Assembly (NCBI GenBank): GCA_029856365.1 | Contig: JAHQWW010000019.1 | Coordinates: forward strand, 1-47,413 | DNA from: Candidatus Hodarchaeota archaeon | GTDB lineage: Archaea > Asgardarchaeota > Heimdallarchaeia > Hodarchaeales > Hodarchaeaceae | Length of the DNA stretch: 47,413 nucleotides | Reading direction: 5' to 3' | In this document: piece by piece, positions 31,916 to 43,486 of the stretch | Layout of the letters: the number at the start of each line of letters is the position of its first letter | How positions within the stretch are numbered: the stretch's first letter is position 1 | The notes under the pieces: generated by a model | Told to the model about the DNA's origin: nothing | What the model saw: the letters and a program-made list of their open reading frames with translations, nothing else | The model's database searches: none | Made by a program: the position numbers and the translations under genes

Positions 31916-32383
31916 TTAAAGCTCTTTAGAAAGAATTAGAATATTCTCCCCTCGGATCCGTTTTTCTCCAATTTCTATAAATCCAAACCTTTTATAGAAT
32001 CGAAGAAGACTTGGGATTTTTGAATAGATTTCTAGTTCGATTCTAATTGCTGTTGGTATGTTTTGTTGAATTAATTTTAAGACTTCTTTAATGACCCCAG
32101 TCCCCAAGCCTTGCTTTTGAAATTGGGGTTTAATCGCAAAGTGGAACAACTTTACTGTTTTCCTATCTGTAAGAGTTAGGGAAAAAGTTCCAATTATGTC
32201 TTGCTTTTCATTATATATTACATATAGTCTATCTTTTTCGAGAGTGTGACTCAATTTTTGCTCTGTGTTATCCAGTGCCCCAGGTAGTCGGGACAAAGTG
32301 TCGGTTATGGGCTTGTAAGCCTCATTGATGATCGATTTAATATAGGGGAGATCTTCTTTTTGTGCAAGCAAAAACTTAATCAA
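31916..32383 (-). CDS. GNAT family N-acetyltransferase
   Basis: FAIKPQFQKQGLG acetyl-CoA motif A and FYKRFGF. 4-bp overlap with the upstream gene. Confidence 0.9.
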   Translation of the reverse strand: MIKFLLAQKEDLPYIKSIINEAYKPITDTLSRLPGALDNTEQKLSHTLEKDRLYVIYNEKQDIIGTFSLTLTDRKTVKLFHFAIKPQFQKQGLGTGVIKEVLKLIQQNIPTAIRIELEIYSKIPSLLRFYKRFGFIEIGEKRIRGENILILSKEL

Positions 32384-33102
32384 AGTTTTTGAACCTCATT
32401 TTTGTTTTCCCGAATAAAACGAGCGGGTGTCCCAGCCCATATAGAATTTGGCGGAATTTTTTGATTTTTTAATACAACAGAGTTGACCCCTACAATTGCA
32501 TTATCACCAATCTCTGATCCAGGTGCAATGATTGTATTTCCTCCAATAGTCACATTATTTCCAATTTTAACTGGAGTAATTGTCAAAAAACGATTTTCGG
32601 TGACATGAGCAGATATAATCGCACGTAACCCAATAAAACAATTGTTTCCAAGGCTTACTAGGTGAGAATCGATCATTGTGCCTGCTGAGAGATAAACGTT
32701 CTTACCTACTTTGAGACCGTATAAGGAGAGAAATTTTCCCAAAAACATTGAATATATATGTGGGATAAAACTAAATGCCTTCAACATACTTTTAAATATT
32801 CCAGGAGACACAATAGCAACTCCATAAAGGAGAGCTTGGTCAGAGTTATGAGGATAGGTTCCTGGTTTGATTTCTGGTAAAAAAATTCTACAGATTATCT
32901 GAGAGTGAACAAGTCCAAATATAATTGTTGAAATGAGATAAAGAATCGGGATTAACATCGCTATTGAAAACCATAGCAAGTAATTTTGAACAGTGAGCAT
33001 TAAGAAATAGACACATACAAACTCAGGGAGAAAAACTGCCATGAAAACAACTGCAGTAAAGAAGAAATAACCAAATAAACGAATCTTAGTCATCCATCTC
33101 AA
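32380..33102 (-). CDS. Membrane-anchored left-handed beta-helix (hexapeptide) acyltransferase-like protein
   Basis: Two N-terminal TMs, then GLKVGKNV, LGNNCFIG, VKIGNNVTIGGNTIIAPG and WAGTPARFIR. Confidence 0.85.
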   Translation of the reverse strand: MRWMTKIRLFGYFFFTAVVFMAVFLPEFVCVYFLMLTVQNYLLWFSIAMLIPILYLISTIIFGLVHSQIICRIFLPEIKPGTYPHNSDQALLYGVAIVSPGIFKSMLKAFSFIPHIYSMFLGKFLSLYGLKVGKNVYLSAGTMIDSHLVSLGNNCFIGLRAIISAHVTENRFLTITPVKIGNNVTIGGNTIIAPGSEIGDNAIVGVNSVVLKNQKIPPNSIWAGTPARFIRENKNEVQKL

Positions 33103-33137
33103 AGTAATTCACAAATTTGATTTATCAGCCTAAATGC

Positions 33138-33908
33138 TTAGTGAGGAATAATTTCTTTCACTTTTCTGACTGTTTCAGAAACTTTAACAACAAGGTTTTC
33201 TAAACCAGAGGTGGGGTCTCCGTCAACGTACAGTAATAACCCTTCACTAATTTTGTAAGCAACAAGATTAGTTGCTTCTGAAGAAACGACCAAATAACGT
33301 AAATTCCTCATATATGTTGAGACATTCAACAAGCGAATAGCTCCAGCCATTCGTGTTTGATCCATTCTATATTCGAGTAGAATATCACCGGTGAAAGAAA
33401 CAATCATAGCTCCTCGGGCGCCAATGTCATTTTGTTGAACTAATTTCTTAAGATAAAATAAAGCGGCATTCTTCGAACTGCTCAGCATTTCACGAGTTTC
33501 ACCTAAAAAAACTTCATCGACATGACTTTTGAATGCTTCAAATACCTCTGTGTCAACAAGTTGCATTTCTTTCACTTGAAGCCCATATTCCGCTAAGAAT
33601 AGACTCGTGATGGTAGTTAATTTGAACTGTAAGTCCAATGGACTCACAAGTGGTGAAGCTAAGATAGCAAACACTAAATCATCTCTTTCGATGAACGAAA
33701 AGCGGAGATCAGTCATATCTACAACTCGAAGCTCACTTAGTGATGACGATTTAGCGAAAGAGAACATCGCTGTTAAAAAGGCTACTACAAGATGGGCATC
33801 AGGAGTTGTTGTATCTTGTGTTTCGTAAGATCGTGTAAATAGTGTATTTCCCGTCTCTTTTTCGAAGATAAAAAAAGCCTTAATTGTTTTGAACTTCTCT
33901 AGTGACAT
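33138..33908 (-). CDS. Longin + roadblock/LC7 two-domain protein
   Basis: The N-half (IKAFFIFEKETGNTLF...LVVAFLTAMFSFA...FLAEY...VFEAF...VDEVF) fits the Asgard longin pattern. The C-half (LKKL..IGARGAMIVSFTGDIL...LLLYV..LENLVVKV) fits roadblock. A GAGGAG SD overlaps the GTPase stop. Confidence 0.75.
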   Translation of the reverse strand: MSLEKFKTIKAFFIFEKETGNTLFTRSYETQDTTTPDAHLVVAFLTAMFSFAKSSSLSELRVVDMTDLRFSFIERDDLVFAILASPLVSPLDLQFKLTTITSLFLAEYGLQVKEMQLVDTEVFEAFKSHVDEVFLGETREMLSSSKNAALFYLKKLVQQNDIGARGAMIVSFTGDILLEYRMDQTRMAGAIRLLNVSTYMRNLRYLVVSSEATNLVAYKISEGLLLYVDGDPTSGLENLVVKVSETVRKVKEIIPH

Positions 33909-33918
33909 GATAAACTCC

Positions 33919-41715: not shown

Positions 41716-41759
41716 TTTCCTAGTAAAAGGATTTCTTCTCTACTCTCTAAATAGGTAAT

Positions 41760-42497
41760 ATGGTGAACTTTGTGGTTGCTTGGGTAATATTTCAAATTCT
41801 TTTGTTAGCTGCTGTTCTTTTTGTGGGAGTCCAGTATTATTACTATTTTGAGACTGTTTTTGCTAATAATTCTCAACAATTGTTCCTTTCACTATTTCTG
41901 TCTATTTGTTTCACATTATTTAGTTTTTTACTCCTTTTTGTGACAATAAATAGGATTGCAAGGTTATTGATGAGGAATGAAGAAGGAATTCTACAGGGTT
42001 GGGATTGGGTTTTATGGGGGATTGCAATGGCTAGCCAAGATTGTGCATATTTTTTGGTGAATAAACTCTTTATAAATCAGATATTTCCTGCAGTATTTTA
42101 CAAGTTATTTGGGTGTAAGCTAGGAAAACGTGTCGGTATTTACTCTAGATTATGGGATGTCGAATTAATAGAAATAGGAGATGATACATATATTGGTACT
42201 GGTTGCATCATAGGTTCCCATGCTATTTCTCAAGGAGAGCTTTACAGAAAGCGAATCAGAATAGGAAAAAATTGCACAATTGGTGCAGGGACAATAATGC
42301 TTCCTGGAGTAACAATTGAAGACAAAGTGATTGTAGCTAGTAATTCAGTTATTCCATCCAACCGTGTATTAAGAACAAACTCAATATATGCAGGGAGTCC
42401 AGTGAAACGAATCAAAGATTGGCATGGTGAAATTGTATGGGAAAAATCAGCGAAAAATTCAGCAAACACCGAAAAAGCTGAAGAATTTAAGAATTGA
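41760..42497 (+). CDS. Membrane-anchored left-handed beta-helix acyltransferase-like protein
   Basis: Two N-terminal TMs, then LFGCKLGKRV, LIEIGDDTYIG, IRIGKNCTIGAGTIMLPGV and YAGSPVK. Confidence 0.85.
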   Translation: MVNFVVAWVIFQILLLAAVLFVGVQYYYYFETVFANNSQQLFLSLFLSICFTLFSFLLLFVTINRIARLLMRNEEGILQGWDWVLWGIAMASQDCAYFLVNKLFINQIFPAVFYKLFGCKLGKRVGIYSRLWDVELIEIGDDTYIGTGCIIGSHAISQGELYRKRIRIGKNCTIGAGTIMLPGVTIEDKVIVASNSVIPSNRVLRTNSIYAGSPVKRIKDWHGEIVWEKSAKNSANTEKAEEFKN

Positions 42498-42592
42498 TAA
42501 ATGATTTATCGATTCCCAAATGGAAAAAACTACTCTGGAGAACAAATTGAAGATTTTAAAGATAAGATCATTCTATCTTAAAACTAACTAGA

Positions 42593-43486
42593 ATGAATCA
42601 GATTGTGAGAATAATGCAAAATAATGTTCTTTATCGCCTTAGATTTCCTAATATCGTTGGGTCTTCGCTTTTTGCTCTGACAGGTTTGATATTAAATTTA
42701 CGTAATCCAATTCATTATGATGTGTACAATGCAATTCTTATTATTCTTTCGATGATATTTTTCAATATTTTCATCTGGATTTCAAATGATTACTACGATG
42801 CTCCTTATGATGCTGCAGATGAATATAAAAAGTCAAGGAACGTTTTCTGTGGTAATCCAAACAATCGTGATTATAAAATTGGAAAAATCTTCATATGGCT
42901 TTCATTAATAAGCGGATTAATTAGTGGTTTGCTAGCTGGTTTTATCTACTTCATGTTTGCTGCGGCAGGACTGCTTCTTGCCTACCTATATAATAGCCCG
43001 ATTTTTCGCGCTAAGAGTAGGCTTGGTTTTGATTGGATTTTCCATGTGATATGGTTTCAAATTACGTTCCTTCCTCTCTACTTGTATATTTTCGGTTTTA
43101 ATGTAATTTGGAGTCTTGATATCCAATTTTATAGTGTTTTTCTTTTCATTTCTTTAGCATCTTTACTAGCTCAGATAAATCATCAAATCCCAGATTATTC
43201 TCTGGACTTACAAACGAATCAAAGAACTACTGTTGTCATCTTAGGAATAGATGCAACCATTAAACTTCGATACGCTTTTTATTTTTTTATTGCAATGGCA
43301 ACTATTGTTCTCTGTCTTTTAAAGGGTACCGTTATCGCTTTACTTATGATGGTTGTTTATACTGCCTATCTACTGAAAACTGACACAAAGAAAGCTGCTG
43401 ATGTTCCTTTAGCATGGTTATATTTCTTTATTGTAGATTTTTTAATTATTTCTCCATTCCTAACATTCGTTTTCTCAATATTCTAA
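42593..43486 (+). CDS. UbiA family prenyltransferase
   Basis: First Asp-rich motif NDYYDAPYD, YNSPIFRAK, second motif HQIPDYSLD..TNQRT; ~8-9 TMs. Confidence 0.88.
   Translation: MNQIVRIMQNNVLYRLRFPNIVGSSLFALTGLILNLRNPIHYDVYNAILIILSMIFFNIFIWISNDYYDAPYDAADEYKKSRNVFCGNPNNRDYKIGKIFIWLSLISGLISGLLAGFIYFMFAAAGLLLAYLYNSPIFRAKSRLGFDWIFHVIWFQITFLPLYLYIFGFNVIWSLDIQFYSVFLFISLASLLAQINHQIPDYSLDLQTNQRTTVVILGIDATIKLRYAFYFFIAMATIVLCLLKGTVIALLMMVVYTAYLLKTDTKKAADVPLAWLYFFIVDFLIISPFLTFVFSIF

Follow-up and report, generated by a model that had tools for sequence, protein, structure and literature searches.

A Rab-like GTPase gene adjoining a longin-roadblock gene, and a neighbouring pair of MFS-longin genes, in a conserved gene block of Hodarchaeum

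Three longin domains, one roadblock domain and one Rab-like small GTPase are encoded between positions 33138 and 41715 (8,578 bp) of a 47,413-nucleotide stretch of DNA, here called the window, from a genome (contig JAHQWW010000019.1) of the genus Hodarchaeum, which belongs to the Asgard lineage nearest to eukaryotes. A sequence-only reading of the window had placed these domains, within about 8.6 kb, in two outward-pointing gene strings; every open reading frame (ORF) was recovered where it had been placed, and the domain calls were supported by family matches and predicted folds. The leftward string begins with the GTPase gene (33919-34479, minus strand, 186 residues), followed by the gene of a two-domain longin-roadblock protein (33138-33908, minus strand, 256 residues), a candidate cognate regulator of the GTPase. 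The rightward string begins with two genes on the plus strand, 38308-39945 and 40051-41715, each encoding a major facilitator superfamily (MFS) transporter with a C-terminal longin domain (approximately 39502-39906 and 41308-41688); their products are referred to as MFS-longin paralogs 1 and 2. Three genes lie between the strings: a 90-residue ORF, a fusion of an isopentenyl-phosphate-kinase-like (IPK-like) domain with a metallo-beta-lactamase, and an M28 peptidase.

The GTPase matched the Ras family with E 5e-43 and Gtr1_RagA with E 8e-7, and its best solved relatives in the PDB were Rab1 and Thor-Rab. Motifs G1, G3, G4 and G5 are intact, Ser stands in place of the G2 Thr and the catalytic Gln is retained. 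The absence of a lipidation tail, noted in the sequence-only reading, was borne out: the protein has no C-terminal Cys, that is, no prenylation site. A short basic-hydrophobic C-terminal tail is retained in the genus, whose orthologs end K-x-K-K/E-F-L (33919-33950 in the window); judged by its residues, this tail might bind the membrane without lipidation.

The stop codon of the GTPase gene overlaps a GAGGAG ribosome-binding site, and the longin-roadblock gene starts 10 bp downstream. Ras-family matches in the same genome number 59, and its longin proteins at least 24. An ordinary gene has a GTPase gene within 4 kb in 12% of cases, within 7.5 kb in 21% and within 50 bp in 0.9%. The MFS-longin genes are 3.8 and 5.6 kb from the GTPase gene; since 12-21% of ordinary genes sit that near a GTPase gene, this proximity alone is weak, unremarkable evidence. 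The same cannot be said of the 10-bp coupling, because of the 0.9% background within 50 bp and because the coupling is repeated at a second site of the genome.

In every evaluable ortholog from the genus, the longin-roadblock gene, or a tandem pair of such genes, has the GTPase gene directly upstream. The second module of the same genome, at a paralogous site (G000 C102:43090-44404; loci L174-L183), has flanks of its own that are kept across the genus, and here the GTPase gene was adjacent in 11/11 copies. Outside the genus, a Rab-like GTPase gene directly preceded a longin-roadblock gene or tandem pair in 13 of 14 loci with differing flanks, spanning other Hodarchaeales and Helarchaeales; these are not 13 independent cases, because some are close kin. 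A tree of 123 GTPases (FastTree) placed all module GTPases in one clade (support 0.966), which had only two further members. The longin-roadblock gene is single in the window, with its paralog on C102, and tandem pairs occur at L146, L151 and L152.

Some of these loci carry further genes. At L152 (6358-10783) two GTPase genes are followed by two longin-roadblock genes, divergent from the gene of a Vps4-like AAA ATPase. Among Helarchaeales (L156:3152-6832; L150; L157), the genome G275 has the tandem order GTPase, longin-roadblock, GTPase, longin-roadblock, and in three loci a GTPase of another clade sits divergently to the module. A small HEAT-repeat gene lies 3' of the module in three Helarchaeales-type loci (L155:5861-6487; L158; L159). 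The LbH (hexapeptide-repeat) gene behind the module at the distant locus L149 was rejected as a conserved part, having only 30% identity over the repeat region and no membrane anchor. A distant, Lokiarchaeia-type family of longin-roadblock-like proteins of about 250 residues (127/135 genomes of family f14) was likewise not accepted as a module: GTPase genes are near but not adjacent, and the usual upstream genes (L187:4746-7397 and others) are those of eIF-1A and Spt5.

In the AlphaFold2 model of the longin-roadblock protein (pLDDT 79), a longin domain at residues 9-135 (33504-33884, minus strand) is followed by a roadblock domain at residues 143-253 (33150-33482, minus strand). Alignment with VIA-align matched the longin half to the VAMP7 longin (Z 15.4, root-mean-square deviation 2.4, 120 residues aligned) and the roadblock half to MglB (Z 16.3, deviation 2.1, 116 aligned), the best match of that half. 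The top 11 Foldseek matches of the protein were all subunits of tri-longin-domain (TLD) Rab guanine nucleotide exchange factors (GEFs), namely BLOC-3, Fuzzy-Inturned and Mon1-Ccz1. The LD1 of these subunits is a longin and their LD2 is of the roadblock type (PMC6864590), and the predicted structure of the longin-roadblock protein has the two domains in the same order.

Fuz_longin_1, the sole longin family matched often by members of the longin-roadblock family, was found in 31/51 of them (best E 2e-6) compared with 4/25 control longin tails of membrane proteins; the matches were weak, the window protein fell below the cut-off, and a Fuz_longin_1 scan of the genome did not recover the window gene. 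Profile searches of the PDB matched no TLD chain to the longin-roadblock protein by sequence. The third, lamtor-like domain of the TLD GEFs is absent, as the protein stops at 256 residues and full-length family members have about 250-270.

The longin GTPase-activating proteins (GAPs) NPRL2, FLCN and SMCR8 have a GP motif before strand 2 and an arginine finger (PMC12290439). The GP motif was not found in either longin family of the locus, the longin-roadblock proteins or the MFS tails, which have G-x or G-x-P instead. Nor was a conserved Arg found in the strand 4-5 loop of either family, where the finger would be expected; position 75 is R/K at the strand end, with none in the MFS tails.

Catalysis by TLD GEFs requires Y-K/R in switch I of the substrate GTPase (PMC12383261). 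The switch-I Phe and Tyr are invariant among the module GTPases, and Y-K is present in 10/12 of those outside Hodarchaeum; the window GTPase has Y-Q and its genus orthologs Y-S. Y-K was also found in 5/36 other GTPases of the same genome.

A complex of the GTPase with a modelled longin-roadblock homodimer was predicted from self-made alignments. It received a mark of 0.54, against 0.00 for the best of 3 controls, which is weak support: in the calibration the passing mark was reached by 58/80 solved and 2/110 mismatched pairs, and passing marks of 0.60 or less were those of only 7/80 solved pairs and of both passing mismatches. The runs agreed in at least 81% of contacts, with a partner pLDDT of at least 79. 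The pass may be memory, because similar complexes have already been solved.

We infer that the longin-roadblock protein and the co-encoded Rab-like GTPase are a cognate regulator pair, in which the former is more likely to act as a GEF or platform than as a GAP. In the proposed mechanism the longin-roadblock protein would dimerise through its longins, as a homodimer in the window and as a heterodimer where the copies are tandem; the dimer would bind the co-encoded GTPase and control which nucleotide state it is in, its most likely role being that of a GEF or a docking platform like Mon1-Ccz1 or TRAPP. The window and C102 longin-roadblock paralogs could also form a heterodimer. It seems unlikely that the protein instead acts through its roadblock half, as an MglB/Ragulator-type GAP or effector scaffold. 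In favour of this are the best match of that half, to MglB, and the loss from the Hodarchaeum GTPases of the switch-I lysine used by TLD GEFs. Against it, the GTPase retains a catalytic Gln of its own and is like Rab and not like MglA, conservation in the family alignment is higher in the longin half, and both the GP motif and the arginine finger are missing.

Among known systems, the closest to this proposed pair are the TLD Rab GEFs Mon1-Ccz1 (Rab7/Ypt7), Fuzzy-Inturned (Rab23) and HPS1-HPS4/BLOC-3 (Rab32/38) (PMC6864590, PMC5216073, PMC12383261). The likeness lies in the longin and roadblock-type domains of a single chain, the top fold matches, the weak Fuz_longin_1 signal, the tie to a Rab-like GTPase with invariant switch-I Phe/Tyr and, outside Hodarchaeum, mostly Y-K, and the tandem diverged longin-roadblock copies of some genomes, which recall a heterodimer. 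The module differs in that its protein has two domains and not three, is usually encoded by one gene and has no sequence match to TLD chains in the PDB, and in that the window GTPase carries Y-Q and lacks a prenylation site. In MglA-MglB (Myxococcus, Thermus) and in TRAPP Bet5/Trs23-Ypt1, too, the small GTPase has a roadblock or longin dimer as its platform; MglB is closest to the roadblock half, whereas the window GTPase is Rab-like, unlike MglA.

For the Asgard archaea, bioRxiv 10.1101/2020.10.19.343400 describes an operon of roadblock, Rab-like GTPase and DENN genes as well as NPRL2-like longin fusions, and PMC10933270 describes Rab and roadblock structures. The window resembles the DENN operon in pairing, at the operon level, a Rab-like GTPase with a roadblock/longin-family protein and in having longins fused to other domains; it differs in having no DENN partner and in joining longin and roadblock in a single chain. 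According to PMC10933270, matching an Asgard GTPase to its regulator from gene order is difficult, and the GTPase genes of MK-D1 are generally not in operons with roadblock/longin-type genes, which makes the pairing in the window useful. An MFS-longin fusion was not found in the passages covered of these two sources. In the literature searched, with subscription journals outside coverage, we found no MFS-longin fusion, no Asgard Mon1-like proteins and no module of GTPase and longin-roadblock genes.

MFS-longin paralog 2 consists of a 12-helix MFS half and a C-terminal longin at residues 420-546 (predicted structure with pLDDT 87 and pTM 0.86); paralog 1 is full-length and 39% identical to it. 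The MFS half has the two-bundle 12-helix fold with motif A, and D70, D291 and R295 are invariant; the conservation of H227, H337 and D341 suggests a ligand or proton site. Its nearest folds are of the DHA1/VMAT type (Z 32-35 to VAChT, VMAT2, NorA and YajR), which does not name the substrate. E. coli YajR (PDB 3WDO), the top Foldseek match of the MFS-longin, likewise combines a 12-helix MFS half with an appended cytoplasmic domain. Its identity to the MFS-longins is 12-15%. YajR ends in a YAM domain instead of a longin. The MFS tails were weakly closest to the TRAPP/sybindin longins (Trs23/TRAPPC1), whose fold binds Rabs as a pair (PMC5216073); unlike TRAPP, the locus has no Bet3 partner, and TRAPP longins are not fused to transporters.

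Full-length MFS-longins were found throughout the genus, in other Hodarchaeales including LC_3, in another Heimdallarchaeia family, in Thorarchaeia, in Helarchaeales and in further families, and a third paralog of the same genome is located on C86. One clade of five genomes within the genus lacks paralog 1 at the locus; the pair is therefore not obligatory. The same longin tail ends other membrane proteins of 370-860 residues without Pfam matches, as a promiscuous domain, and the Helarchaeales genome G275 gave 79 profile matches, nearly all of them to the longin tail only. A small solute would be carried or bound by the MFS-longins, and their tail would serve as a general docking/dimerisation domain that Asgard archaea attach to many membrane proteins; the partner of the tail need not be the window GTPase.

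Longin-tailed proteins of 735-860 residues, with about 10-12 membrane helices and no Pfam match, are very widespread in Asgard (L140:7329-9569; L141:5908-8115; L143:5916-8501; G000 C36:40859-43450). In another Asgard class, a tandem MFS-longin pair (L136:8685-12184) had no GTPase gene detected in the 20 kb of DNA examined. In LC_3 (L100:2562-7704), the gene of a 1,491-residue longin-domain protein lies directly upstream of a Rab-like GTPase gene, 7 kb from an MFS-longin gene.

The GTPase/longin-roadblock genes and the MFS-longin genes belong to separate transcription units, with three genes between them. In the DNA examined, where many contigs are short, no MFS-longin gene was seen beside any out-of-genus module locus or the paralogous site, and no longin-roadblock gene was seen near the out-of-genus MFS-longins examined. 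In G275, assembled in 10 contigs, C11 carries the module and C5 the MFS-longin. Five genomes that are 93-98% complete (G028, G038, G153, G044 and G203) have MFS-longins and only longin-half matches to the longin-roadblock profile. The GTPases near MFS-longins in LC_3, G028 and G044 were rejected as module members: they lie outside the module clade and their proximity is within chance.

The sequence-only reading had named synteny across relatives as a check, to which a lack of conserved linkage would have been the adverse answer. The two strings were linked in 17/17 evaluable genus genomes, so conserved linkage does exist at the genus level, and no linkage was seen beyond the genus. Unrelated genes of the block are kept alike: a HEAT-repeat gene with the module in 18/18, the TET, XPF and pantothenate genes beyond, and a TPR gene with the MFS genes in 13/16. 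Genus-level synteny was for this reason, and because background synteny is already 26-69%, rejected as proof of one machine. The LbH, GNAT, UbiA and M28 genes are present in some genomes of the genus and absent from others. We think it probable that one stable Hodarchaeum gene block holds two separate units, a GTPase/regulator operon and an MFS-longin pair.

Several observations count against two separate units and against the GEF-like assignment. Background synteny of pairs 3-9 kb apart is lower (26% with G001, 69% with G010) than the 17/17 retention of the link between the GTPase and MFS genes, so the neighbourhood itself may be under selection. The longin alone is equally near to SNARE longins (VAMP7 and Sec22, Z about 15) and to TLD longins; for this reason, and because the Pfam matches are below cut-off, the kinship with Mon1 and Fuzzy may reflect domain order only. 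With its Y-Q, the window GTPase lacks the Y-K/R demanded by TLD GEF catalysis (PMC12383261). One core homolog has no adjacent GTPase gene, and many of the out-of-genus module loci are short contigs.

The recruitment model of the sequence-only reading, in which the MFS-longins recruit the longin-roadblock protein and the GTPase, survived in part. The functional tie between GTPase and longin-roadblock protein was supported; the MFS-longins as dedicated recruiters were not, since the linkage was not seen beyond the genus and is common to unrelated block genes, and some genomes with MFS-longins yielded no longin-roadblock partner. We regard it as quite unlikely that the MFS-longins are transceptors which, at least in Hodarchaeum, bring the pair to the membrane as one peptide/amino-acid sensing unit. 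The linkage above genome background, the GTPase without a Cys for lipidation and the weak lean of the MFS tails to a fold that binds Rabs when paired (PMC5216073) would fit such a unit, as would a peptidase, either M42 or the non-orthologous M28, facing the MFS promoter in 13/20 genomes. These points are offset by the unrelated genes kept equally, by the three genes between separate transcription units, by the lack of linkage seen in other Hodarchaeales, in Helarchaeales or at the paralogous module, by a GTPase that is not Rag, a transporter that is not of the APC fold and longins without GAP motifs, and by closest transporter folds of the DHA1/VMAT type, not peptide transporters.

The nearby peptidases had also been read as fitting peptide or amino-acid sensing, which the distribution did not confirm. 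The slot facing the MFS promoter (36845-38062, minus strand, with M28 in the window; L064:9332-10381) is occupied by a second M42 in ten of about 20 genomes and by M28 in only three, flipped in one; in seven it is empty. The slot was not accepted as evidence of peptide sensing and remains an unexplained hint.

In a broader scheme the eukaryotic tri-longin Rab GEFs would have their archaeal forerunner in the longin-roadblock family, inherited together with its cognate Rab-like clade since before the Hodarchaeales/Helarchaeales split, with the Hodarchaeum MFS longin tails docking the pair to the membrane as a transporter-coupled Rab switch; taken as a whole, this is very unlikely.

The suggestion of a minimal Rag/Ragulator/GATOR1/SLC38A9 sensor was not supported. 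The transporter, roadblock, longin and small-GTPase folds of mTORC1 amino-acid sensing (SLC38A9-Ragulator-Rag with GATOR1 and FLCN-FNIP) are all nearby, but the window GTPase is a 186-residue stand-alone Rab-like domain with no fused C-terminal roadblock, unlike Rag; the transporters are MFS and not of the APC/LeuT fold of SLC38A9; and the longins have neither the GP motif nor the arginine finger of the GATOR1/FLCN GAPs. Much better Rag-like matches are found on C12 and C96 of the same genome and a folliculin-family match at G000 C9:53523-53735, and these genes are better candidates for an mTORC1-like sensor than the window locus. The matches are in line with the FLCN-like and NPRL2-like Asgard proteins already published (10.1101/2020.10.19.343400). 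On present evidence, the claim of an mTORC1-like sensor at the window locus should not be carried forward.

Asgard genomes hold dozens of GTPases, longins and roadblocks, and the two-gene module singles out one candidate GTPase/regulator pair among them. The module is conserved in two Asgard classes and resembles in shape the catalytic front of Mon1-Ccz1, Fuzzy and BLOC-3; it makes testable whether a Rab GEF of this type predates eukaryotes, and the natural Y-K versus Y-Q/Y-S variants are a built-in test of mechanism. Should a partner turn up, the MFS-longin would represent the simplest link in a prokaryote from transport to a longin platform.

The genes between the strings are fixed except for the peptidase. 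The 90-residue ORF (34774-35046, plus strand), divergent from the GTPase gene and constant in place across the genus, has no Pfam or NCBIfam match. The fusion of the IPK-like domain with an RNase Z-like metallo-beta-lactamase (35076-36761, minus strand) lies between both strings throughout the genus; the kinase-like domain matched IPPK_Arch with E 4e-22, below the cut-off. The outer genes are variable: a membrane-anchored LbH protein (32380-33102, minus strand) follows the module in 8 of the roughly 20 genomes of the genus, a GNAT acetyltransferase (31916-32383, minus strand) is absent in G002, G003, G018, G020 and G021, a second membrane-anchored LbH protein (41760-42497, plus strand) varies as well, and a UbiA-family prenyltransferase (42593-43486, plus strand) lies behind the MFS pair in about half of the genomes. 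That the rightward string and its neighbours are a lipid/isoprenoid handling cluster, in which a lipid-like solute is moved by the MFS proteins and the longin tail does no more than regulate or oligomerise them, is highly improbable, for although the IPK-like domain in its fusion fixed beside the MFS genes, UbiA and two LbH proteins with weak matches to heptaprenylglyceryl-phosphate acetyltransferase point that way, the UbiA and LbH genes vary within the genus and all NCBIfam matches are far below cut-off.

A promoter and terminator scan with bacterial models gave counts at chance level. In the same conserved block, positions 23654-27061 contain a pantothenate/CoA cluster encoding PanE, a GHMP kinase, phosphopantothenate synthetase and PanB, followed by genes for XPF/ERCC4 and for a 797-residue HEAT-repeat protein.

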